Assembly: GCA_031417395.1 (NCBI GenBank)
Contig: JANOVM010000057.1
Coordinates: forward strand, 18,078-82,077
Source: Bacteroidota bacterium
GTDB taxonomy: Bacteria > Bacteroidota > Bacteroidia > AKYH767-A > 2013-40CM-41-45
Reading direction: 5' to 3'
DNA: 64,000 bases
In this document: one piece after another, positions 6,629-21,212 of the stretch
Position numbering within the stretch: position 1 is the first letter of the stretch
How the letters are laid out: each line of letters starts with the position of its first letter
Translations under genes and position numbers: made by a program
The notes under the pieces: generated by a model
What the model was told of the DNA's origin: nothing
What the model saw: the letters and a program-made list of their open reading frames with translations, nothing else
Database searches by the model: none

Positions 6629-6796
6629 AAAGGGGATCCAATTTCGTTAATAAATTGCAGAAAAAAAAATAAATCCCTGGATTAGAGCATAAATTCTCGT
6701 TTTTTTATTAATTAAACTTTATTACAAATAGCTATATTCTTTGTTTTTTGATTGAAAAACAAGAATTATTTTTTCGATTTTGCCAATTATATTTAA

Positions 6797-9099: not shown

Positions 9100-9145
9100 T
9101 TTTTGTTGTTTTCTTTAGTGGTTAGTGTTTTTTGATTTTGATATG

Positions 9146-9212
9146 ACAAATGTATATCCTTCATCACATGCCATTATTATATTACTTTGGGAAAGGATTA
9201 TAGAATTTTGGG
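9146..9212 (-). promoter_or_regulatory. promoter plus candidate operator upstream of the esterase gene (copy A of a duplicated bipartite element)
   Basis: In gene sense this reads CCCAAAATTCTATAATCCTTTCCCAAAGTAATATAA - 21 nt - ATACATTTGT. The distal 10-mer contains a TAnnTTTG -7 box. The 36-bp block is 34/36 identical to a second copy at 10898-10933, and both copies share the same 21-nt spacing to the 10-mer. Confidence 0.5.
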
Positions 9213-9230
9213 ATACTTGCATTAAGCGTA

Positions 9231-9265
9231 AAAAAAACTCCGTCGGTTGACGAAGTTTTAAAGAA
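9231..9265 (-). terminator. putative intrinsic terminator downstream of the multicopper oxidase gene
   Basis: Minus-strand reading aacttcgtc-aacc-gacggagtt followed by a T7 run. It lies 18 bp after the MCO stop. Confidence 0.45.
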
Positions 9266-9282
9266 AGCAGATAAAATCAATA

Positions 9283-10681: not shown

Positions 10682-10798
10682 TTAGCAATTGCAGGAATTA
10701 CTGCAGTTACATTTTTCACATTTGCAAGATGTACCGCAAGTGCAGTTTTCACAGACACAAGGTTGACATGTGCATTTTGAATTGGCAGAATTTTTCAT
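10682..10798 (-). CDS. small cysteine-rich metallothionein-like peptide (38 aa, 12 Cys)
   Basis: Hand translation of the minus strand gives MKNSANSKCTCQPCVCENCTCGTSCKCEKCNCSNSCNC*, six regularly spaced CxC pairs. It lies between the HMA-AraC regulator and the multicopper oxidase on the same strand. It is below the 60-aa cutoff of the ORF track. Confidence 0.5.
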   Translation of the reverse strand: MKNSANSKCTCQPCVCENCTCGTSCKCEKCNCSNSCNC

Positions 10799-10866
10799 AC
10801 TGCTTTGAGCACCTTGGCTCTTTTTTAAGTTTGTTTTCATGACTTTTTTGAATTAAAATTTACACT

Positions 10867-10933
10867 ACAAATGTATGGCAAGCATGCACCGTGAGCGTTA
10901 TATTACTTTGGGAATGAATTATAGAATTTTGGG
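10867..10933 (-). promoter_or_regulatory. promoter plus candidate operator upstream of the Cys-rich peptide / multicopper oxidase unit (copy B)
   Basis: In gene sense this reads CCCAAAATTCTATAATTCATTCCCAAAGTAATATAA - 21 nt - ATACATTTGT (TAnnTTTG -7 box). It is near-identical to copy A at 9146-9212. Confidence 0.5.
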
Positions 10934-11032: not shown

Positions 11033-11608
11033 TTATACTTTATCAAGCGCTTTACGCTTTACCGTCCCAACTTTTTTAAAGTAAGAGGGTGTAAGTCCGG
11101 TGATTTTCTTGAATTGACTGGAAAGATGCGCTGTACTGCTATAATCAAGTTCAAAAGCAATTTCAGAGAGAGTCTTTTCTCCATAAATGAGTAACTCTTT
11201 AGCTTTTTCAATTCTTTGTTCAATATAAAAATTTTCTATAGTTCTTCCTTCGACTGATGAGAATAAACTGCTAAGATGTGTGTACTCATAATGCAGTTTT
11301 TCAGAAAGGTAGTTTGAAAGGTTTATTTTTTTTTCTTTAGAATCAACTTCGAACCGGGCTTTCTTAATTGCAAGCTGTTTGATTTTTTCAATCAGTCCGC
11401 TCATATGACTGTCGATTAATTCAAAGCCAATACCATTAAGATTTCTTGAAAGGGCAGTTTTCTGTTTTTCATTTAATTCATCCATTAAATGAATCTCACT
11501 AAAAAGAACTTTTTGAAAAGGGATCTTTTCTCTGTTTAGGATTTCTTCTACGGCCAGAACACAGCGATGACAAACCATATTTTTTACAAGTACAATATGT
11601 GAGGTCAT
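11033..11608 (-). CDS. AraC-family transcriptional regulator with an N-terminal HMA-like metal-binding domain
   Basis: The N-terminus IVLVKNMVCHRCVLAVEEIL has an MxCxxC motif in a beta-alpha-beta-beta-alpha-beta-like segment, as in the heavy-metal-associated fold. The C-terminus ...LSEIAFELDYSSTAHLSSQFKKITGLTPSYFKK is an AraC-type HTH. Confidence 0.7.
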   Translation of the reverse strand: MTSHIVLVKNMVCHRCVLAVEEILNREKIPFQKVLFSEIHLMDELNEKQKTALSRNLNGIGFELIDSHMSGLIEKIKQLAIKKARFEVDSKEKKINLSNYLSEKLHYEYTHLSSLFSSVEGRTIENFYIEQRIEKAKELLIYGEKTLSEIAFELDYSSTAHLSSQFKKITGLTPSYFKKVGTVKRKALDKV

Positions 11609-11956
11609 ATATAAATAGCGTATTATTATTTCTTGAGTATTTTCAGAATATCAACTTTAATATGGAATAATTGATTGTAATACCCAAAAGTAACTTAAAT
11701 AAAGCACATTCATGCCTCATTGGGCTTTGCGAGATTGCTTTATAGTAGATAAAAAAGGATGGAGATAAAAAAGTTTAGGGTACATTACATTATTCAATGT
11801 TATATTCAGCGAATACCCGACTTATTCTTAATCTTGCAGACAATTATCGCCGTTTTGAATAGTACTTTTTCCAAAAACTCTAAAACTGATAAATAATAAG
11901 GCTTGATAGAATTAATTCGGGAAACTTTGAAAAACATTAAACATTAAAGAATCAAT

Positions 11957-12568
11957 ATGAATCAGAAATGGGATGAACGGTATAAGGAGCATGAATTTGC
12001 TTACGGTAAAGAACCTAATGTTTTTTTCAAAGAGTGGATTTCGAAACTTGAACCCGGGGAAATATTAATGCCTGCCGATGGAGAAGGCCGCAATGGGGTA
12101 TTTGCTGCACGGCTTGGGTGGAAAGTAACGTCTTTTGATCTAAGCAAAGAAGGAAAATCAAAAGCTTTACAATTGGCCAAAGAGAATAATGTAACTATCG
12201 AATATATTGTTGGGGATTTAGAACAACTCGAGTTTGAACAAAAAACATTTGATGTCATAGGACTTGTGTATGCGCATTTTTCAGCAGACAAGAAATCTAC
12301 CTTCCACCTGAAATTAAATAGCTTTCTCAAACCCGGAGGGGTAATTATTTTTGAGGCTTTCAGTAAGAAGCAAATACAGTATAAAAAACTCAATCCTCAA
12401 GTAGGTGGCCCCGATGATATTAATATGCTGTACTCCAAAGAAGAAATAATTGCGGATTTTGGTAATTATGAAGTCTTAATGTTAGAAGAAGAAGAAATTC
12501 TTTTAAATGAAGGAAAATATCATAATGGAAAGGGTTCTGTGATAAGATTTGTTGGGAGAAAAAAATAA
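11957..12568 (+). CDS. class I SAM-dependent methyltransferase
   Basis: Motif I ILMPADGEGRNGVFAARLGW (D/ExGxGxG) followed by acidic VTSFDLS. Size 203 aa. Confidence 0.65.
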   Translation: MNQKWDERYKEHEFAYGKEPNVFFKEWISKLEPGEILMPADGEGRNGVFAARLGWKVTSFDLSKEGKSKALQLAKENNVTIEYIVGDLEQLEFEQKTFDVIGLVYAHFSADKKSTFHLKLNSFLKPGGVIIFEAFSKKQIQYKKLNPQVGGPDDINMLYSKEEIIADFGNYEVLMLEEEEILLNEGKYHNGKGSVIRFVGRKK

Positions 12569-13342
12569 AGCACTGCTAACAAAAATAAATTGCAGAAAAA
12601 AAATGATCACCTAAATTTAAGTATAAATCCTTTTTTTTGATCAATTCACCTTAAATACAAAATTGCCAGATTCCCTGGCTGTACGGGGTTTCCTTATAAT
12701 TATTCTACAATCGGTGTGGTTTTGTTATTTCAATTTCAGGTGGGAAAACAACGTACAATATAAATCCTTTGGGCGCATGAGAATAAATACTCTGCCCTTG
12801 GGCTCTTTAAAGTAAAAAGACCAGCATATTTAATCGCCTGTAAACAAGCTTAAGTATGAAAAAAAAGGCTTGCGCCTGTTGTTCGTACGGTTTTCCCTCT
12901 TACCCTGCCGCACATTTCATCATTACCAGCAATAACAATGATGTTTTTAAATAGTCAAAGATTATTTTTCCCTTTCAGCTTAACAATTGCATATAAGCCG
13001 GTTCTTTTATTAAAATAGTTGTCATTGCGAGATAATCTGTATTCACATAACCTGAACCTTTCAAGTTTAAAAAATTAAAATAATACTAATTGTGAAAGAA
13101 AGTATTTTTAAGCTGTTCCGTCGAGCTGGGTCCCAAAAGAAGATCCGGCGACAGCCAGGTACCTGAAGTCTATTACCACATTAGCCGGTTTGATCCAGCA
13201 AGCAAGTTCTATTTATTGTTAGGTCTTAATTATCCCAATCAATCTTTTTTCCATCGTTGGGCGAAGTCATGCGTTTAAGGATGGCATACCACTCTGATTA
13301 TAGATAGACGTTTGTGCAAAAGACTTAGTCAAACAAGAGAGA

Positions 13343-14227
13343 TTAAGAATGAGGCCTTGATGTCTCTCTATAACGATATAAATTTGCTCCGTTATTATTT
13401 ACTCCAACCAAAATTATTTTAATAGTTGAATTTGTGTCCTTTCGGTCTAGACCATAATAATATCGGATGCCCTTGCAATCTGGATCTGAAAAGATCTGTT
13501 CAACTGTATTGTTTCTGCTAAAGTAAGACTCATAATTGGAACAGTTAATATTAAAAATATTTCTGCATTTGAGGTAATCTTTTGATAATGTAATAAGATT
13601 ATTACCTGGATTATTATATATAATATCCTGATTTCCTCCACCATTTATTTTACGATGAGTCACAAGCTTACTAATATATTGATCTAATGTGGTAATATTT
13701 TGAAAACGGTCAAACATATTGTTATTACTCGATTTCTTACAATTTAAAGCTCGTACACCGGGGGTTCCCACACCAGAATTACAGACATCATTGTCTAAAG
13801 CGAGAAAAAAGTTTACTGTCGAATTATCGGAAGGAGGGCAGACTACGGTCCCTTTATCTGAAGTACCACATAAATGAAATTTTATAGCATTATATGATAC
13901 CAAATCAGCCATTTTTAACGTGAAATAATCTATATCCCCATATATAGTTCCACCAAAATATTTTATTTTACCATTAAATTCTATTTGAAAATCCATTATT
14001 AGTTGAGCAGCGTCTTCAGCAGAATATGTATGATCAGGTTCTTTAACTGGGTCGCAATAAATGCATGGATCAGCCACAGTTCCAACCGGTTTATAATTTT
14101 CATTAGAAGAGTCCCGCAGATTGCCAGATGCAGAACTGTCGGTAATATTCCCACTGCTATCGTTAGGTTTTTGATTGCAGCTATAAAAAACAAGAGTAAA
14201 CAATAGTAATCTAAATAAATTTTTCAT
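13343..14227 (-). CDS. secreted/lipoprotein hypothetical protein, Cys-motif family member A
   Basis: Lipoprotein signal (LVFYSC). It has an N-proximal DPCIYCDP motif and a C-terminal DPDCKGIRYYYGLDR...IKIILVGVNNNGANLYRYRETS block. Both are shared with the divergently transcribed paralog at 14537-15358. Confidence 0.55.
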   Translation of the reverse strand: MKNLFRLLLFTLVFYSCNQKPNDSSGNITDSSASGNLRDSSNENYKPVGTVADPCIYCDPVKEPDHTYSAEDAAQLIMDFQIEFNGKIKYFGGTIYGDIDYFTLKMADLVSYNAIKFHLCGTSDKGTVVCPPSDNSTVNFFLALDNDVCNSGVGTPGVRALNCKKSSNNNMFDRFQNITTLDQYISKLVTHRKINGGGNQDIIYNNPGNNLITLSKDYLKCRNIFNINCSNYESYFSRNNTVEQIFSDPDCKGIRYYYGLDRKDTNSTIKIILVGVNNNGANLYRYRETSRPHS

Positions 14228-14536
14228 AATTTTTAAAGTTTAAATTTTGTGTTACAAATAAAGAGACAATGAAACTCAAACAAAAATAATCATATAGTTT
14301 TAAAGTCCAAATGTTTTTACAAATATTTTGAACCTGAATATACTTTTGGCTTTCGTTGACACGTGTTAAAGTAATTGAAGTAAACTTACCACAGAAGGTA
14401 TTTGTGGTAAAAGCATGTTTTAGTATTTAAATCCGATAACTTACTTAAAAAGTTGCCTAATTTGCTTTCAAGATATAATTTCATAAATTTGACAAAGCGT
14501 ATTTTTGAAATTTTATTTTACTAAAACATTTTTTAA

Positions 14537-15358
14537 ATGAGAACTCACAAAAAGCGCTGGTTATTTTTATTAATCGCTTCTGTAATTACAGCAGCTATAT
14601 TTTTTATTGTTATTCCGGATAATCCCTGCGAAGTTTGCGACCCTAATCAAGATCATCATTTTAGTGCAAGCGAATCGGTACCCCTGATTGCTGTCTTTAA
14701 TACCAGGTTTAATATAACTACATATGGCGGAACTATTTTTGGAGTAAAAGACTACTTCGAAAAGGGATTTGATAGCAAGCACCTTCCGCAAGGCGGCTCT
14801 CGTGCATTTAAGTTTCATTTTTGTTCTCCCAAAAGTGGCGCTAGCGATTTTTTTTTAGTTTTTCAAAATGCATATTGTATTAATAACAGACTGATGGATT
14901 TTGAAAATGTTGTACCTTTTTATTTTACCGGAGGAGATTTGACTTTTCCAAAGACAAGGTGCAACTCTTCAAGTTCGGTTGATTGTGTACAAAGAGATGG
15001 CGAAAGCAGACCTTACCCTGATGCAACAAGACCTTTGTCAGATTGGCAGAAAAGCCAAGAATTTAATGGGATTGACCTTCCTGCAGTTAGGGCAGCTTTT
15101 AAGCTGAAAACAATTTTTACCCGGGAATTACAAAAATGCACTGACAATTACGTAGGATATTTTATTTACAATACATCGCTTTTGGATATATTTGGTAATA
15201 AGGATAAGCCAGGTGATCCACCATGTCAGGGAATTCGTTATTATTATGCATATGACAGAGTAAAGAGCACATATAAAATAAGAATAATCTTGGTTGGAGT
15301 AGATGCTAATGGCAGGAATCTTAACACCTGGCGAGAAACGTCTGTACCATTTAATTAA
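14537..15358 (+). CDS. membrane-anchored/secreted hypothetical protein, Cys-motif family member B (paralog of 13343-14227)
   Basis: N-terminal TM anchor. It has NPCEVCDPN and C-terminal PPCQGIRYYYAYDR...IRIILVGVDANGRNLNTWRETS, plus the shared YGGTIFG..DYF and KFHFC blocks. Confidence 0.55.
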   Translation: MRTHKKRWLFLLIASVITAAIFFIVIPDNPCEVCDPNQDHHFSASESVPLIAVFNTRFNITTYGGTIFGVKDYFEKGFDSKHLPQGGSRAFKFHFCSPKSGASDFFLVFQNAYCINNRLMDFENVVPFYFTGGDLTFPKTRCNSSSSVDCVQRDGESRPYPDATRPLSDWQKSQEFNGIDLPAVRAAFKLKTIFTRELQKCTDNYVGYFIYNTSLLDIFGNKDKPGDPPCQGIRYYYAYDRVKSTYKIRIILVGVDANGRNLNTWRETSVPFN

Positions 15359-15478
15359 AAAGGTCAAATATTATTTTCATTTAGTCATAACATAAAATAT
15401 TCTGCTATTTTTGCTGACCATCGGCAGTTTCATTCTTGCATGAATGTTAAACCCCCTTTTATCTATCAGAAAAATTAA

Positions 15479-18400
15479 ATGCAAAAATATTTTAGTCGAC
15501 ATTTTATTGGAATTTATTTTTTATTATTTATTGTTTGTTGTTCTCCTGATCATCAACAATCTTCTGTATACACATCAAAGACAGATTCTATCGTCCCGCC
15601 TGTACGAATTGTCGCCGGAAAACCTGTTGTTATAAAAACCGATACGTGTCCACCTCCTCGTTGTATTGTTATACCGGAAAAACCATTCAATTATCCCACA
15701 AAGATTGCAGGCGTTACCAAATTTATAAAGTTATTACAGCCCATTAAAAAACCTGTTGATTTTTCCATTGCCCTTCAAAATTTTAACACAGACAAAGGCC
15801 TGGCTCTTAGTTCCGTTCTTAGTTCTTGCAAGGATCGTAACGGCAACCTCTGGTTTGGAACCGATGGCGGCGGTGTAAGCAGGTACGATGGTAAATCATT
15901 TACCAATTTTACTTTGGGACATGGACTTGGTCACAATTCTGTTTACTGTATTCATGAAGATAAAAAGGGCAACATCTGGTTCGGTACCAATGGTGGAGGT
16001 TTAAGTAAATATGATGGAAAATCATTTGTCACTTTTACTGTCGCTCAAGGCCTTTCAAGCAATGCTGTTCACTCCTTAATCGAAACGAAAGATAACAGAC
16101 TATGGATTGGTACGGAAAAAGGTGTGAGTATTTATGATGGTAAATCTTTCATTAGGTTTAATGCTTCAACTGAATTGGATAGTTGTGAAGTGGATTGCAT
16201 GACGGAGGATTCAAATGGGACAATTTGGTTTGGCACAAATGAACATGGTGCTTTTAAGTTTACCGGGGATAGTTGTATTCATTTCACCGCCAACAATGGA
16301 CTAGCCGATAATAATGTGAGAAGTATTATTCAGGATAGTTCTATAATCTGGCTGGGTTGCGAATCGGGTCTTGTGAAGTATAAAGATAAATTGTTTTCGA
16401 CTATTACTACAAAGGAAGGATTGAGAGACAATAATATCAATTGTATTCATAAGGATAATCAGCAAAATATCTGGGTAGGCAATTCAGGAGGTATAAACAA
16501 ATATGATGGTCACTCATTCAAAACAATTGCAACTAATGAAAATCTATTGAACAGCGAAGTATACTGCATCACAGAGGATAATTCGGGAAATTTATGGTTT
16601 GGTACGTATGGTGGCGGTTTATTTTTGTATTCCAATTCCGGTTGTACTACCTCAAATAACCTTGCCGGAAATGTTGTCAATAATATTATCGAAGACAAAG
16701 CAGGAAATATATGGTTTGGAACTGACGGAGGCGTAACCAGGAATGACGGAAAAATTTTTACATCATATTCAATCTCTCAAGGGCTTGCAGACAACCGTGT
16801 TTTAAGTATTGCCGAAGACAGTGCAGGCCTTTTGTGGTTTGGCACTTATGGAAGGGGTGTAAGCAGCTATGATGGAAAATGCTTTACTACATTCACTACT
16901 GACAATGGATTAGTGGATAATACTGTGTGGGTTATTACTAAAGATTTGTCAAATAATATCTGGATGGGTACTAACGGGGGTGTCTCGAAGTATAAAAACG
17001 GAGTTTTCACGAATTACAATACAAATACAGGTCTTTCTAACAATAAAATCCGGTGTATTACTCCCGATAATTTTGGAAATATATGGTTTGGAACAGATGG
17101 CGGCGGTGTATGCTATTTTAATGGCAAAACATTTACAAATTTTACTACAAAACAGGGTCTAGCCAATAATTCAATTTACTGCATTACTAAAGATCAAACC
17201 GGAAACTTATGGTTCGGTACTGCAGGAGGTGGCATTAGTATTTTAAGTGTTGACATACTTAATAAGCTTACTTCTTATGAAAATAGAGGTTTAGACAAGT
17301 TTGAGCAAAGGGATCAGATATTTAAAAATTTTACCACTGAAGACGGCCTGGCAAATGATGTCGTATATGATATCGTTGAAAATAAACAGGGTGATGTAAT
17401 TATTGGTACCAATGAAGGCTTTACAGTTCTTAATGGTGGTTATGATTCTATAAAAAAAACAGCTGCAAAAAAAGGGATTACTTACTTGAATCAAAAAACA
17501 GGTTATCCTATAAAAGACATAAATATTAATGCCCTTTATATGGATTCTATAGGAATTATCTGGGCAGGTACCGGTGATAAATTAATACGTTTTGATTTTA
17601 ACTCTATTCTTAAGCCAAATTCAAAGCCTACTGTTGTAATTCAAAACATTAAATTAAATAACCAAAACATCAGCTGGTATGATTTGGAGCGTTCAAAAGG
17701 AAAGAATGAAAGTTTTGAATTGGACAGTTTAACCTTTCCTCCAAATATTACGGAAGAGGCAATTGTTTTTGGCAGCTCTTTAAGTAATGCTAAACGCGAT
17801 TCCATGCGTAAGACATTTGATGGGGTTTTGTTTGATAGTATTAGCCGTTTTTACTATTTACCGATAAATCTGGTTTTACCCTGCATTGATAATAACATTA
17901 CGTTTGATTATGCAGCTATTGAACCTGCCAGACCGTTTCTTGTGAGATATCAGTTCATGCTTGTAGGATTTGATAAAACCTGGAACCCGGTAACGGATAG
18001 AACCCATGCAAGTTTCGGTAATTTGTTTGAAGGTGCTTATACTTTTAAATTAAGAGCCAAAAGTCCCGAAGGGATATGGAGCGATGATATAAGTTATAGT
18101 TTCATTATTCTGCCCCCATGGTATCGTACCTGGTGGGCCTATACAATGTATGTAGTTATATTTTTAGCACTATTTATCGGTTACATAAGATGGCGATTAT
18201 TTGATTTGAAAAGAGAAAAAGAAATACTGGAAGAGAAGGTTGCTCTCCGTACTTCTGAATTAAAGAAGGAAAATGAAAGAGCAGAAAGTCTACTATTAAA
18301 TATTTTACCCCATGAAATAGCCGAAGAACTGAAAGTAACAGGAACTGCATTGCCGAAGGAATTTGAAGAAGTAACAGTATTATTTACTGATTTTAGGAAT

Positions 18401-18910
18401 TTCACTCAGTTGACAGAACAAAGCAATGCGCAGCAATTGGTCAGCCAGATCAATTATTATTACAGCGCATTCGATAGTATAATTTCCAAATATGCAATTG
18501 AAAAAATAAAAACGATTGGAGACAGTTACATGTGTGCCGGCGGACTTCCTGTTGAAAATAAAACCAACCCTCAGGATACAATTATGGCTGCATTGGAAAT
18601 CAGGAATTTTGTTTTAAAAGAAAAGGAAATCAGGCAAAAAACAGGTCAAATATTTTTTGAAATTAGAATTGGCCTTCATACGGGGCCCGTTGTAGCCGGA
18701 ATTGTTGGTGTCAAGAAATATGCTTATGACATTTGGGGCGATACTGTCAACGTAGCTAAACGCATGGAAAGCAGCAGCGAGCCGGGGAAAGTAAATGTTT
18801 CCGGCAGCACATATGAATTGGTAAAAGATAAATTTAAATTTTCTTACCGCGGAAAGGTTCAGATAAAAAACAAAAACGATCTGGACATGTATTTTGTGGA
18901 TAATATGTAA
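15479..18910 (+). CDS. sensor protein: periplasmic two-component-regulator propeller repeats, single TM helix, coiled coil and a class III adenylate/guanylate cyclase domain
   Basis: About 14 repeats of the type GL..N.V..I.EDK.GNIWFGT.GGGLS.YDG.SF (Reg_prop). TM helix WWAYTMYVVIFLALFIGYI. The cyclase motifs VLFTDFRNFT, IKTIGDSYMCAGGLP and YDIWGDTVNVAKRMES are present, including both metal-binding Asp residues. Confidence 0.8.
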   Translation: MQKYFSRHFIGIYFLLFIVCCSPDHQQSSVYTSKTDSIVPPVRIVAGKPVVIKTDTCPPPRCIVIPEKPFNYPTKIAGVTKFIKLLQPIKKPVDFSIALQNFNTDKGLALSSVLSSCKDRNGNLWFGTDGGGVSRYDGKSFTNFTLGHGLGHNSVYCIHEDKKGNIWFGTNGGGLSKYDGKSFVTFTVAQGLSSNAVHSLIETKDNRLWIGTEKGVSIYDGKSFIRFNASTELDSCEVDCMTEDSNGTIWFGTNEHGAFKFTGDSCIHFTANNGLADNNVRSIIQDSSIIWLGCESGLVKYKDKLFSTITTKEGLRDNNINCIHKDNQQNIWVGNSGGINKYDGHSFKTIATNENLLNSEVYCITEDNSGNLWFGTYGGGLFLYSNSGCTTSNNLAGNVVNNIIEDKAGNIWFGTDGGVTRNDGKIFTSYSISQGLADNRVLSIAEDSAGLLWFGTYGRGVSSYDGKCFTTFTTDNGLVDNTVWVITKDLSNNIWMGTNGGVSKYKNGVFTNYNTNTGLSNNKIRCITPDNFGNIWFGTDGGGVCYFNGKTFTNFTTKQGLANNSIYCITKDQTGNLWFGTAGGGISILSVDILNKLTSYENRGLDKFEQRDQIFKNFTTEDGLANDVVYDIVENKQGDVIIGTNEGFTVLNGGYDSIKKTAAKKGITYLNQKTGYPIKDININALYMDSIGIIWAGTGDKLIRFDFNSILKPNSKPTVVIQNIKLNNQNISWYDLERSKGKNESFELDSLTFPPNITEEAIVFGSSLSNAKRDSMRKTFDGVLFDSISRFYYLPINLVLPCIDNNITFDYAAIEPARPFLVRYQFMLVGFDKTWNPVTDRTHASFGNLFEGAYTFKLRAKSPEGIWSDDISYSFIILPPWYRTWWAYTMYVVIFLALFIGYIRWRLFDLKREKEILEEKVALRTSELKKENERAESLLLNILPHEIAEELKVTGTALPKEFEEVTVLFTDFRNFTQLTEQSNAQQLVSQINYYYSAFDSIISKYAIEKIKTIGDSYMCAGGLPVENKTNPQDTIMAALEIRNFVLKEKEIRQKTGQIFFEIRIGLHTGPVVAGIVGVKKYAYDIWGDTVNVAKRMESSSEPGKVNVSGSTYELVKDKFKFSYRGKVQIKNKNDLDMYFVDNM

Positions 18911-19090
18911 ATTTAAATCAATCCTTGATACTTTTACTAATCTTCCAGAGCGTAAGCATTTCCAAAATATAAATATATATGAAACCGCTTTTAACAATTT
19001 ATAACCTGAGCTCTTAGGAAAAATAAATCTGGAAAATATTATTACTATTGAAATAATTTTACTCAAAGCATTGAATTTTCAAATTTTGAA

Positions 19091-19195
19091 AATTATGAAA
19101 TCTTAATGTTAGAAGAAGAGGAAATTCTTTTGAATGAAGGAAAATATCATAATGGGAAGGGTTCTGTGATAAGATTTGTTGGAAGAAAAAAATAG
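19091..19195 (+). pseudogene. orphan duplicate of the 3' end of the methyltransferase gene (matches 12461-12568)
   Basis: About 94% nucleotide identity over ~105 bp to the last 35 codons of the 11957-12568 gene. It encodes ...[35 protein letters not shown] with no upstream gene body. Confidence 0.6.
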
Positions 19196-19256
19196 ATCAC
19201 TCTTAACAGCAATATTATTATATTTTTGTCTAACTTTCTCAAATCAATTTCCGCTT

Positions 19257-21212
19257 ATGCAAAAAAAAAGTAATAGGAATATTTCGCCGAAGAAACCTGT
19301 TGCTTCAAATCAACCGGCAAATAAGGAAGAGAGAAAGAACAATCTGATTCCAATCATTATTCTGGTTTTAGTAACAATTATATGTTTTTCCAATTCCCTG
19401 AACAATGATTTTACCAATTGGGATGATCCCGGATATGTAATCGATAATCCTCTAGTAAAGAGTTTGTCATCCGGCAATATCAAAGAAATGTTTAAAACAC
19501 CGGTACAGGGAAATTATCATCCGCTAACCATATTATCACTGGCGCTAGACTACAAGGTAAATCAGCTAAATCCTTTCGGATATCATTTTTCGAATTTGTT
19601 GTTTCATCTTCTTAATGTAATTCTCGCTTTTGTATTTGTACGGATGTTAACCGGACGAATGCTTATTGCATTTATTGTGGCATTGTTTTTTGGAATCCAT
19701 CCCATGCATGTCGAATCAGTTTCCTGGATCTCTGAGCGAAAGGATGTTTTATACGTATTGTGGTATCTCGCTTCGCTATGTACATGGCTATTCATGTTGA
19801 GAACACAGAGGAATCAGACTATTTATTATTCATTGACAGTTATCTTTTTCATTTTCTCTTTACTTTCAAAGGCACAGGCTGTCACCTTACCATTGGTTTT
19901 ATTATTGATCGATTATTTTAAAGAGAGAAAATTAAGTAAGAAATTAATTTTGGAGAAACTTCCTTTTTTCCTGATAGCCATAGTTATGGGTGTAATAGCT
20001 TTGAAGGCTCAGAAGATGTCGGGCGCTATTGCAGAAATGCCGGCAATTAATCTTTACGAAAGATTTCTGTTTGCCTCATATGCATTTATTATATATGTAT
20101 ATAAATTATTCTTACCGTTTAATTTATCAACGTACTATCCGTATCCCGAAAAAACAGGAAATTCTTTTCCGACAATTTTTTATATAGCTCCAATTTTGTT
20201 ATTGGGTTTAATATTTATTGTAGTTAAGTATTTCAGTAAAAATAAATCGTTTGTTTTTGGATTTGTTTTTTTTATTCTTAATATCATCCTTCTGTTGCAA
20301 ATACTTCCCGTTGGTTCCTCTATACTATCTGAAAGATATACTTACCTGGCATATATAGGGCTCTTCTTTATTATCGGATATTTATTTGACAAAGTTTGGT
20401 ATTCAAAAGTCAAAAACGAATCGAAGTATAAATATTTATTTGCCGGCGGAATATTCCTGTTTGCAATTTTCCTTTCAGTGAATACAGTTGCCAGAAATAA
20501 AGTGTGGAAGAACAGTGAAACCTTGTGGACAGATGTGCTCAACCAATTTCCAAGAGTTGTTATCGCTTTATGCGATCGCGGCAATTATTACAAAGCAAAG
20601 GATAAGGAGGATTTGGCATTTGCAGATTTTGACAGGGCATTACAAATTAATCCCGATCATGTGGAAACACTTATTAATCGTGCAGAGATCTACCGACTTC
20701 GTGGACAACTGGAACTATCTCTAGCCGATTGTAACAGGGCTATTAATGTGAATCCTAAATACAATGGAGCTTATGTAAATCGCGGCATTGTGTATTGCAT
20801 GACTTCCAGGCTTGATGATGCAATGATGGATTTCAACAAAGCAGCTTTACTCGATCCTAATTTTTCAAGTACCTATTGCGATCGCGGTAACTTGTATGAC
20901 ATGAAAGGTATGCTCGACTCCGCTATCATAGACTATACAAAAGCAATTCAATTGAAGCCTGATTATGCCGAAGCATTTTATAATCGGGGCAAGACCTATT
21001 TTAGAAAGCAAGAATTTGATGCTGCATTGAATGATTTCAATGCTGCATTAAAAATTAGGAAGAATTATTTCGGTGTGTATTTTTATCGCTCTAAGGTTTA
21101 TAAAGCCAGGAAAGATTATCAAAATGCACTCAACGACGCTCTATATATTAAAGAAAGCGGACAGCCAATCGATGAAAATTATATTGTTGAATTACGTAAT
21201 TTGTTGCAATAA
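19257..21212 (+). CDS. TMTC/PMT-like GT-C membrane glycosyltransferase fused to C-terminal TPR repeats
   Basis: About 11 TM helices carrying a NWDDPGYVIDNPLV-type motif (DUF1736/TMTC-like). At least six C-terminal TPR units (AFADFDRALQINPDH..., YVNRGIVY..., FYNRGKTY...). The ORF track starts at a TTG at 19176. ATG 19257 (MQKKSNRN...) is the more plausible start. Confidence 0.6.
   Translation: MQKKSNRNISPKKPVASNQPANKEERKNNLIPIIILVLVTIICFSNSLNNDFTNWDDPGYVIDNPLVKSLSSGNIKEMFKTPVQGNYHPLTILSLALDYKVNQLNPFGYHFSNLLFHLLNVILAFVFVRMLTGRMLIAFIVALFFGIHPMHVESVSWISERKDVLYVLWYLASLCTWLFMLRTQRNQTIYYSLTVIFFIFSLLSKAQAVTLPLVLLLIDYFKERKLSKKLILEKLPFFLIAIVMGVIALKAQKMSGAIAEMPAINLYERFLFASYAFIIYVYKLFLPFNLSTYYPYPEKTGNSFPTIFYIAPILLLGLIFIVVKYFSKNKSFVFGFVFFILNIILLLQILPVGSSILSERYTYLAYIGLFFIIGYLFDKVWYSKVKNESKYKYLFAGGIFLFAIFLSVNTVARNKVWKNSETLWTDVLNQFPRVVIALCDRGNYYKAKDKEDLAFADFDRALQINPDHVETLINRAEIYRLRGQLELSLADCNRAINVNPKYNGAYVNRGIVYCMTSRLDDAMMDFNKAALLDPNFSSTYCDRGNLYDMKGMLDSAIIDYTKAIQLKPDYAEAFYNRGKTYFRKQEFDAALNDFNAALKIRKNYFGVYFYRSKVYKARKDYQNALNDALYIKESGQPIDENYIVELRNLLQ

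Follow-up and report, generated by a model that had tools for sequence, protein, structure and literature searches.

In Escherichia coli, e14 and phage 21 reside in the 3' end of icd, a conserved gene for which the incoming element supplies a replacement end, leaving the old end downstream as icdC, and the differences between the two gene ends are mostly synonymous (PMC13626634). The e14 element encodes its own integrase and excises upon SOS induction. Integrase-free insertion by a homologous single crossover gives the same repeat topology: when a circular molecule bearing a shortened homologous fragment undergoes a single crossover, duplications of 109-950 bp flank the insert, a Campbell-type case obtained experimentally with plasmids in E. 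coli at 100% homology (PMC3240628). Homology-facilitated illegitimate recombination is known from Acinetobacter, S. pneumoniae and P. stutzeri and has been called on to explain how C-termini are displaced at Rhs, CdiA and T6SS effector loci; a conserved gene acts as a one-sided anchor, new DNA is attached downstream of it, and what used to follow is moved away and left orphaned (PMC5361080, PMC3240628). The same homology anchoring has been proposed to displace cassettes at T6SS and Rhs loci (PMC5361080), and reported events of this type typically span ~1 kb and are accompanied by deletions (PMC3240628).

The 64-kb stretch of Bacteroidota DNA that we analyzed (hereafter the window) contains two copies of the 3' end of a methyltransferase gene that has 2458 homologues, at 70-90% identity, across Bacteroidota (Table 1). 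A repeat scan delimited a two-copy direct repeat of 132 nt (12456-12587 and 19083-19214; extents of 12456-12588 and 19083-19215 were also obtained) with 90% identity and a spacing of 6627 nt, and blastn aligned copy A with copy B at E=1.6e-47. Together with a codon-by-codon comparison, these searches establish that the gene-end duplication of ~105 bp described in the initial annotation is real, although its coordinates were a few bases off and there are eight mismatches over 12461-12568 rather than about seven. Across the coding core (12466-12568), 97 of 103 positions are identical, and all six differences are A<->G transitions. Four of these are synonymous (gaa/gag, tta/ttg, gga/ggg and ggg/gga, copy A given first) and one exchanges stop for stop (taa/tag), exactly the five pairs that had been listed as synonymous; the sixth is gtc/atc (V to I). 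Codon 12461-63 differs as well (ggt/gaa, G to E), and identity between the copies drops to 16/56 upstream of 12456. Similarity runs ~13-20 nt past the stop codon in both copies (14/20), and the post-stop motif CACTNNTAAC of copy A is also present in the DNA downstream of the gene in two of the contigs used for comparison, L019 and L003. Using an nhmmer profile of seven methyltransferase genes, we aligned copy B from 19060 to 19194 (profile positions 475-611), which makes the remnant ~46 codons long; it carries a 2-nt deletion as well as a 15-nt scrambled patch (19069-19083), is followed directly by the TPR gene, and is polymorphic (G/A) at 19120. The repeat is not the product of misassembly, because independent assemblies from several runs (L001, L002 and L013-L015) cross both insert junctions; the longest identical runs within it are 26, 23 and 19 nt, and none exceeds 26 nt.

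Table 1. Features of the methyltransferase locus, in window coordinates.
Feature	Position	Strand	Basis or remarks
Intact class I SAM-dependent methyltransferase gene, 203 aa	11957..12568	+	ORF; Pfam Methyltransf_25/11; last ~46 codons form copy A
Repeat copy A: 3' end of intact gene plus ~13-20 nt post-stop	12431..12588	+	high-identity core 12456-12588
AT-rich ~80-nt intergenic element, immediately after copy A	12584..12661		blastn: 76% copy at 6649-6728 in window
Inserted block, about 6.47 kb	12589..19059		absent from relatives L007-L011, L018, L019
Decayed YafK/LdtF-like L,D-transpeptidase gene fragment	13111..13242	+	NCBIfam NF040599, E=8.4e-6, profile 74-119/242
CysA, predicted lipoprotein, rare Cys-motif family	13343..14227	-	31% identical to CysB; no Pfam or NCBIfam match
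CysB, membrane-anchored or secreted CysA paralogue	14537..15358	+	family motifs
Sensor adenylate/guanylate cyclase: Reg_prop beta-propellers, Y_Y_Y, TM segment, class III cyclase domain	15479..18910	+	Pfam
Repeat copy B: displaced resident methyltransferase 3' end, non-functional	19060..19208	+	profile positions 475-611 plus post-stop bases; core from 19083
Perfect 21-nt palindrome AATTTTCAAA-T-TTTGAAAATT	19074..19094		centre is the start of high identity between copies
Multi-pass membrane protein, C-terminal TPR repeats	19257..21212	+	86% identical to L007 and L018 orthologues; next gene after methyltransferase in relatives

In three sampled relatives (represented by the seven contigs L007-L011, L018 and L019), the methyltransferase gene is followed directly by the TPR gene. 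The distance from the methyltransferase gene to the TPR gene or its upstream block is about 90 nt in L007-L011 and L018 and about 125 nt in L019, and what follows copy B can be aligned with the spacer between the methyltransferase and TPR genes in L007 and L018. These empty sites indicate that copy B is the resident 3' end, still at its native location, and that the intervening DNA, about 6.5 kb, is an insertion, as the initial annotation had held; the comparison with related genomes that it proposed as a check came out in favor of an insertion. The downstream gene, previously labeled a TPR glycosyltransferase, matches only TPR models, and the glycosyltransferase part of that label was not confirmed. 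The block is known from a single population (MAG GCA_031387945.1 and Logan runs SRR202171xx/2xx), and every contig recovered carries the cargo as a single copy. No empty-site contig turned up in these samples by exact-protein look-up, the AraC regulator being present only on the known contig. When metagenomes were scanned for the DNA pattern of the gene end, a first scan returned nothing and a second six distant genes, with no closer relatives. Codon usage of the three block genes and tetranucleotide frequencies are within the range of the rest of the window, and we therefore rejected compositional foreignness of the block, which the codon-usage comparison suggested earlier did not set apart; native-like composition is expected if, as we propose, the donor was related. 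A drop in identity to L007 at ~11850 gave no consistent sign that the whole methyltransferase gene came from the donor, as the right flank is also ~86% identical.

Several features of the two copies bear on their history. Copy A and copy B differ at a pS of 0.21 and a pN of 0.012 (pN/pS about 0.06), values that rest on five coding differences and that, conditioned on transitions, reach only p=0.05. When copy B is compared to every functional allele, pS ranges from 0.21 to 0.47 and pN from 0.012 to 0.048, the same values as are found between functional alleles, and copy B has no private nonsynonymous-type change. The preponderance of synonymous differences, together with the absence of private amino acid-type changes in copy B, argues for divergence under selection in separate lineages, in keeping with the coding constraint that had been read from the duplication at the outset. 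The states ATC, GAG, TAG and CACTCT of copy B are present in the functional gene of L019, and the states GTC, TAA and CACTG of copy A in L003 and L018. Moreover, pS between copies A and B is roughly equal to that between L007 and L018, as would be expected of two alleles from distinct lineages. Judged from these comparisons, the homologous pieces flanking the block appear to be different functional alleles, each shaped by selection in its own lineage, and the event that brought them together was probably recent, because the remnant shows no neutral decay. The two copies are each other's nearest sequences (95/100, versus 91-94 to others) and have AAG in common where four close relatives (L007, L018, L019 and L003) have AAA, which requires that the donor was very close or that gene conversion occurred. 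Allele states alternate from one end of the repeat to the other, and their sequence gives no information on the crossover point.

The right boundary is less orderly. From 19060 to 19084, a 9-nt in-register match to the gene gives way to the scrambled patch and the palindrome, with no clean microhomology readable. The palindrome is the only one in the window whose arms reach 10 bp or more around a spacer no longer than 1 nt (shuffles give 0.3); as a hairpin it is weak (z=-1.3), and a repeat scan found no convincing terminal inverted repeats of the block. Transposon insertion with target-site duplication, which would leave identical repeats of 2-15 bp, does not fit, since the repeat here is at least 130 nt long and 6-10% diverged and neither convincing terminal inverted repeats nor a transposase was found.

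The reading that we regard as probable, if with some reserve, is a homology-anchored insertion of related-lineage DNA, either Campbell-type or homology-facilitated illegitimate. According to this scheme, a related Bacteroidota lineage would have donated ~6.5 kb of chromosomal-type DNA, which would have entered the methyltransferase gene within its last ~46 codons and supplied its own version of the gene 3' end, copy A; because the incoming DNA carried that end, the reading frame would have stayed whole. The resident end, copy B, would have been moved 6.6 kb downstream, a dead scar that still occupies its old place before the TPR gene. The likeliest route would be host (RecA-type) recombination anchored on methyltransferase homology, with no dedicated integrase needed, either through a Campbell-type single crossover with a donor fragment that had circularised and contained a truncated gene end or through homology-facilitated illegitimate recombination. 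As in Campbell-type insertion, a direct duplication surrounds the insert and no site-specific recombinase is required, and the repeat of ~130-150 nt falls within the range of 109-950 bp (PMC3240628); unlike in the experimental case, one would have to assume a 6.6-kb circle formed from chromosomal DNA of a related species, and homology stands at 94%. The locus likewise shares with homology-facilitated illegitimate recombination its one-sided anchor in a conserved gene and the orphaning of the former downstream part (PMC5361080, PMC3240628), but the insert measures 6.5 kb, the scrambled patch and palindrome stand where typical joints show 3-10-bp microhomology, and the anchor is a housekeeping-type methyltransferase, whereas those of Rhs, CdiA and T6SS are polymorphic toxins. 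Against homology-anchored insertion stand the scrambled patch and perfect palindrome at the right boundary, which neither variant predicts, the small number of sites behind the selection statistics, the mutual closeness of copies A and B, and the cargo itself, as the Cys proteins are near-orphans and the closest relative of the cyclase is distant. A donor-like genome, with the methyltransferase gene followed by the block, was not found among 60 genome loci, in protein databases or in the contexts of cyclase homologues, which may reflect sampling. This is island acquisition of an ordinary, well-documented kind, with no recombinase in sight, and it leaves current knowledge of recombination unchanged. 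Its value is as a clean natural example of a chromosome gaining a small island without mobile-element machinery, a highly conserved gene serving as landing pad: the incoming DNA would repair the gene into which it breaks, and the displaced gene end gives the event its date and polarity. Such gene-end scars mark recent horizontal acquisition in metagenome-assembled genomes, with the caution that a gene-end duplication is not always an attachment site.

The initial annotation had instead proposed an integrating element that carries a replacement 3' end and is flanked by attL and attR. For such a site-specific element to fit the locus, its integrase would later have been lost or would have acted in trans from another element (a CIME-like, recombinase-less island). 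The topology is that of icd, e14 and icdC, including the mostly synonymous gene-end differences (PMC13626634, citing Hill et al. 1989); the flanking direct repeats are derived from the target, the target is unoccupied in relatives, the identical runs of 26, 23 and 19 nt could act as a core, and a unique perfect palindrome sits at the boundary. In contrast to e14, however, the block has no recombinase, no phage genes and no sign of excision, and its target is not reused in other genomes. Neither the ORFs of the block nor any six-frame fragment matched a recombinase, integrase, transposase or remnant thereof (Pfam, PHROGs and NCBIfam), as had been noted from the start, and no recombinase was found among ORFs of at least 150 aa in positions 1-52 kb of the window. 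A second 3'-end copy within 10 kb of the gene was seen in 0 of 58 other genomes carrying the methyltransferase gene, a test blind to elements larger than 10 kb. Downstream of the gene in those 58 loci, no integrase family was found among the 25 largest families listed with at least two matches, a scan of 92 integrase-sized ORFs within 8 kb in which a single match could be hidden. Viral contigs with the methyltransferase gene end or the Cys-family profile were likewise absent. The sole gene relic in the block is an L,D-transpeptidase fragment, traceless loss of an integrase is unlikely given how recent the event appears to be, the cargo consists of ordinary chromosomal-type genes of native-like composition, and a palindrome with a 1-nt spacer is unlike a tyrosine-recombinase core. 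We thus find the attL/attR interpretation unsupported and site-specific integration unlikely, though it retains a real chance of being right.

A replication or repair error in situ (template switching or fold-back priming), in which the gene end was duplicated, DNA was captured and the copies diverged in place, might account for the palindrome and scrambled patch at the right boundary, for copies A and B being mutually nearest with one derived site in common, for native-like composition, and for the second copy in the window of the ~80-nt element beside copy A. We nevertheless consider it improbable: neutral drift at pS=0.21 predicts about 4-9 nonsynonymous-type changes in the 83 sites of copy B and none is private, the states that distinguish copy B exist in the functional allele of L019, and the cargo has no second copy in the contigs recovered. 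It is slightly harder still to credit that the block and both copies are ancestral and were lost in relatives. Direct repeats of ~130 nt at 94% identity would be able to mediate such deletion, and loss of e14 at icd works by recombination of this sort (PMC13626634), but losses would be needed in at least three lineages (the L007 group, L018 and L019), great age is incompatible with a remnant in which no decay is seen, the cargo is found nowhere else, and the origin of the repeats would be left unexplained. Lowest of all in our estimation, and a speculation, is that a mobile cassette devoid of a recombinase (CIME-like or of unrecognised mechanism) makes up the block and lands via a surrogate gene end, for which the 21-nt palindrome would be a recombination site or footprint.

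With regard to the cargo, stop-free runs in the 774-nt stretch between the methyltransferase gene and cysA (12569-13342) do not exceed 62 codons in any frame. It had been singled out for an integrase or recombinase remnant, and a search of its stop-free fragments and six-frame translations (Pfam, PHROGs and NCBIfam) recovered only the decayed L,D-transpeptidase-like fragment, whose zone is also matched by phrog_17304 (E=3.6e-4), with a possible former start at the ATG at 12856 and truncation by the 3' end of the next gene. Pfam gave no match on this stretch, nor did distant blastn against phages and plasmids, and the AT-rich element within it folds no better than shuffles. A tRNA/tmRNA scan and Rfam returned nothing, whether in the whole window at gathering score or in 12500-13400 at E<=1, and promoter and terminator consensus sites are no more numerous than in shuffles. 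CysA and CysB are paralogous, as recognized initially (31% identity, E=3e-25), and belong to a family with 32 representatives among 1.84 billion; a word-based search of 5.8 billion proteins for relatives of CysB returned only itself, and its AlphaFold2 model (two-sequence alignment, pLDDT 36) was unusable. The propeller, Y_Y_Y and cyclase architecture previously assigned to the neighboring sensor was evident in Pfam; its best homologue is only 54% identical, and the contexts of the three closest homologues are unrelated to this locus. The pairing of a rare Cys-motif secreted family with a propeller-sensor adenylate cyclase may merit a study of its own.

A repeat scan identified a two-copy direct repeat of 132 nt with 90% identity and a spacing of 6627 nt (copy A versus copy B by blastn, E=1.6e-47), in which copy A is the 3' end of the intact SAM methyltransferase gene. 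When the copies were compared in the frame of this gene, 97 of 103 core positions (12466-12568) were identical, and each of the six differences was an A<->G transition: four are synonymous, one changes V to I, and one changes TAA to TAG. Codon 12461-63 also differs (GGT/GAA). Identity between the copies is at background level 5' of 12456 (16/56), and similarity persists for ~13-20 nt past the stop. Using a DNA profile of seven methyltransferase genes, we could align copy B from 19060 to 19194 (profile positions 475-611); the remnant therefore spans ~46 codons, broken up by a 2-nt deletion and 15 nt of scrambled sequence (19069-19083). The 9-mer at 19060, TACTCAAAG, is unique in the window and is a near-register match to the allele of the relative L018. 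The repeat reported in the initial annotation was thus confirmed and, by the gene profile, slightly extended to 19060.

Features in and around the bracketed DNA
Feature	Position (strand)	Location	Description
Multicopper oxidase		left of repeat	
AraC-type regulator	11033-11608 (-)	left of repeat	191 aa
Class I SAM methyltransferase	11957-12568	left of repeat	203 aa
Repeat copy A	12456-12587		
Stretch without ORFs	12569-13342	first part of bracketed DNA	774 nt
CysA	13343-14227 (-)	bracketed DNA	Cys-motif protein; predicted N-terminal export signal
CysB	14537-15358 (+)	bracketed DNA	paralogue of CysA; predicted N-terminal export signal
Sensor cyclase	15479-18910 (+)	bracketed DNA	1143 aa; ten Reg_prop repeats, Y_Y_Y domain, class III cyclase domain
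Repeat copy B	19083-19214		
Conserved box TATTTTTG	19221-19228	upstream of TPR gene	
TPR gene	19257-21212 (+)	right of repeat	651-aa multi-pass membrane protein with TPR repeats

An assembly artefact was rejected as the source of this arrangement, as each junction is spanned by contigs: the left by the NCBI MAG contig L001 and the Logan contig L002, and the right by the Logan contigs L013, L014 and L015 from three runs, with L001 and L013 overlapping by 4 kb. Logan contigs are built on a k=31 graph and the longest identical run between the copies is at most 26 nt; copy-to-copy collapse is therefore not expected.

Conservation of the methyltransferase family across Bacteroidota is very high. 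In L007-L011 (two MAGs and three Logan runs), which carry a methyltransferase relative at 86% identity, the multicopper oxidase is followed by the same AraC regulator, the methyltransferase and, after 92 nt, a TPR orthologue (86% identical). The TPR gene begins 88 nt past the stop in L018 (methyltransferase identity 90%), and in the relative L019 the block upstream of the TPR gene lies 125 nt past the methyltransferase stop. The empty site anticipated by the initial annotation is therefore found in all of these relatives, with the bracketed block absent. Moreover, the DNA after copy B (19196-19330) aligns with the relatives' methyltransferase-TPR spacer and the start of the TPR gene, and the DNA after copy A gives no alignment with this spacer. 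It follows that copy B is the resident gene end, still at its native position, and that ~6.47 kb (12589-19059) has been added; the block is an insertion into the methyltransferase 3' end. Among 60 loci with the methyltransferase in species-representative genomes, a TPR neighbour was found only in the L007 relative, and neither a further copy of the gene end within 10 kb nor Cys-family genes were present at any locus other than the one described here.

Several lines of evidence bear on the origin of the two copies. Although few sites are available, A versus B gave pS=0.21 (4/19.2 sites) and pN=0.012 (1/82.8), a ratio of 0.06, with a binomial p of 0.005 under uniform mutation and 0.05 with transitions only. 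Compared with each functional allele, B gave pS of 0.21-0.47 and pN of 0.012-0.048, the same as functional genes compared with one another. No amino-acid-type changes were private to B; ~4-9 would be expected had B drifted without constraint over its share of the A-B divergence. The B-type states ATC, GAG, TAG and CACTCT are present in the working gene of L019, the A-type states GTC, TAA and CACTG are present in the relatives L003 and L018, and at synonymous sites A and B are as far apart as the L007 and L018 lineages are. From the synonymous-skewed differences and the functional-like states of B, we thus infer that the copies are alleles of separate lineages whose divergence took place under selection, in agreement with the initial annotation, which had described mostly synonymous differences and divergence under coding constraint. 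The insert brought a gene end of its own, and the resident gene end was probably truncated recently. No sequence is closer to A than B, or to B than A (95/100 versus 91-94), and the two share AAG where four close relatives (L007, L018, L019 and L003) have AAA; therefore, either the donor was close or some gene conversion has occurred. Within the remnant, window position 19120 is still polymorphic (G/A) in the population, with A, the state of copy A and most relatives, in L015; L014 stops one base short of this site. The dead copy B would either still be segregating variants or be undergoing conversion by copy A.

The 774-nt stretch lacks ORFs, as initially annotated, but it carries a decayed gene: a YafK/LdtF L,D-transpeptidase model matched at 13111-13242 (+) (NF040599, E=8.4e-6, profile positions 74-119 of 242), and a PHROG matched the same zone, so the stretch is probably in large part a dead housekeeping-type gene. 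These were the only matches in the proposed search for an integrase or recombinase remnant; neither the stop-free fragments of 12569-13342 nor its complete six-frame translations yielded a recombinase, and the DNA of this stretch matched no phage or plasmid. The paralogy of the two Cys-motif proteins was borne out (31% identity). A word-based search of 5.8 billion proteins with CysB found only itself, and a CysA/CysB profile found 32 representatives among 1.84 billion, 12 of them below 1e-10. All are ~150-320 aa except one weak 840-aa match. The ten retrieved (243-297 aa) have YGGTIYG, KFHFC, LFLAFE..C, C.GIRYYFGYD, ILVGVD..G.NL and RE(N/T)S.P in common, and most start with a signal-peptide-like N-terminus. 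No family model matched CysA/CysB (13343-15358) and the structure model was unusable; the proteins belong to a rare uncharacterised family, predicted to be exported, with conserved Cys, YGGTIYG and GIRYYFGYD motifs. The best relative of the cyclase is 54% identical and its homologues lie in unrelated neighbourhoods; the donor context is not reconstructable. To the right of the repeat, the label of glycosyltransferase was not confirmed for the TPR protein, which matched TPR models only and no glycosyltransferase model. No tRNA genes or Rfam matches were found.

The insert is flanked on both sides by homologous pieces that are different alleles. Such a structure is generated by an element that encodes an integrase and supplies a surrogate gene end, the model being e14 at icd (PMC13626634), and the initial annotation had proposed an integrating element with attL/attR scars. 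Host recombination yields the same structure equally well. Duplications of 109-950 bp flank the insert when a circle with a shortened homologous fragment enters the chromosome by a single crossover (PMC3240628), homology-facilitated illegitimate recombination combines one homologous end with one illegitimate end (summarised in PMC3240628), and the same anchoring has been invoked for effector-end displacement at T6SS and Rhs loci (PMC5361080).

Neither the ORFs of the block nor those of 150 aa or longer in the window's first 52 kb matched an integrase, transposase or phage family, in keeping with the initial statement that no integrase or transposase is recognisable. No viral contigs encoding the methyltransferase or Cys family were found, and for 92 integrase-sized ORFs up to 8 kb downstream at the 60 methyltransferase loci, no integrase family was among those matched by at least two of the ORFs. 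In codon usage and in tetranucleotide composition, the block fell within the window's range. These results are evidence against the block being an integrating element; of the original reading, the insertion, empty site and coding constraint stand, and the site-specific element is not supported. Because the event is recent and there is no recombinase or relic, no recurrence, ordinary cargo and native-like composition, we lean slightly towards host recombination anchored on gene homology, which would have inserted the block with its own gene end. Integrase-mediated integration, despite sharing its topology with e14, is unlikely on the same grounds. In-situ duplication with later drift is disfavoured, being contradicted by the selection signature, and ancestral presence of the block with repeated loss is unparsimonious. 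Scars of this kind are known, and the locus adds a further case.

A perfect 21-nt palindrome, AATTTTCAAA-T-TTTGAAAATT (19074-19094), is centred on the onset of high identity between the copies (19083/19084), with methyltransferase sequence as its right arm and the inverted copy as its left. No other palindrome in the 64-kb window has arms of 10 bp or longer and a spacer no longer than 1 nt (0.3 in shuffles), and its hairpin is weak. The palindrome may represent a templated (fold-back) mutation in the dead remnant, an end-processing footprint or a binding site. The remnant also keeps an in-frame ATG (Met175 of the methyltransferase), opening a predicted 29-codon micro-ORF (19106-19195) that runs to the old stop.

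Directly 3' of copy A lies one copy of an ~80-nt AT-rich intergenic element starting ATAAATTGCAGAAAAAAAA (12584-12661 and 6649-6728, 76% identity), which folds no better than shuffles. Logan contigs from three runs end at 12840 (L002) or begin at 12999/13000 (L013, L014 and L016), and the MAG contig and the window are continuous across this interval, which suggests a 158-nt block (12841-12998), variable in the population, where the dead L,D-transpeptidase gene has its 5' end. Identity to the L007 relative is 91-98% across the AraC gene and spacer and falls to 82-89% in the methyltransferase, the drop lying at 11850-11900, just 5' of the gene's start; the TPR side is at ~86%. The drop marks a recombination breakpoint distinct from the insertion. 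Further upstream, a 52-aa ORF (10682-10840, -) consisting mostly of metallothionein-like CxC motifs adjoins the AraC-type regulator, which has an N-terminal MxCxxC metal-binding-like motif, and the multicopper oxidase; the three look like a copper-handling cluster. A 150-nt stretch in the esterase-multicopper oxidase interval (9119-9268) is absent from MAG contig L001 and present in the window, L002 and L007. Inside it, a 36-nt motif (9177-9212) recurs with 94% identity at 10898-10933, upstream of the small Cys-rich ORF, and could serve this cluster as a promoter or operator. Deletions have disrupted the oxidase gene in the L007 relatives.
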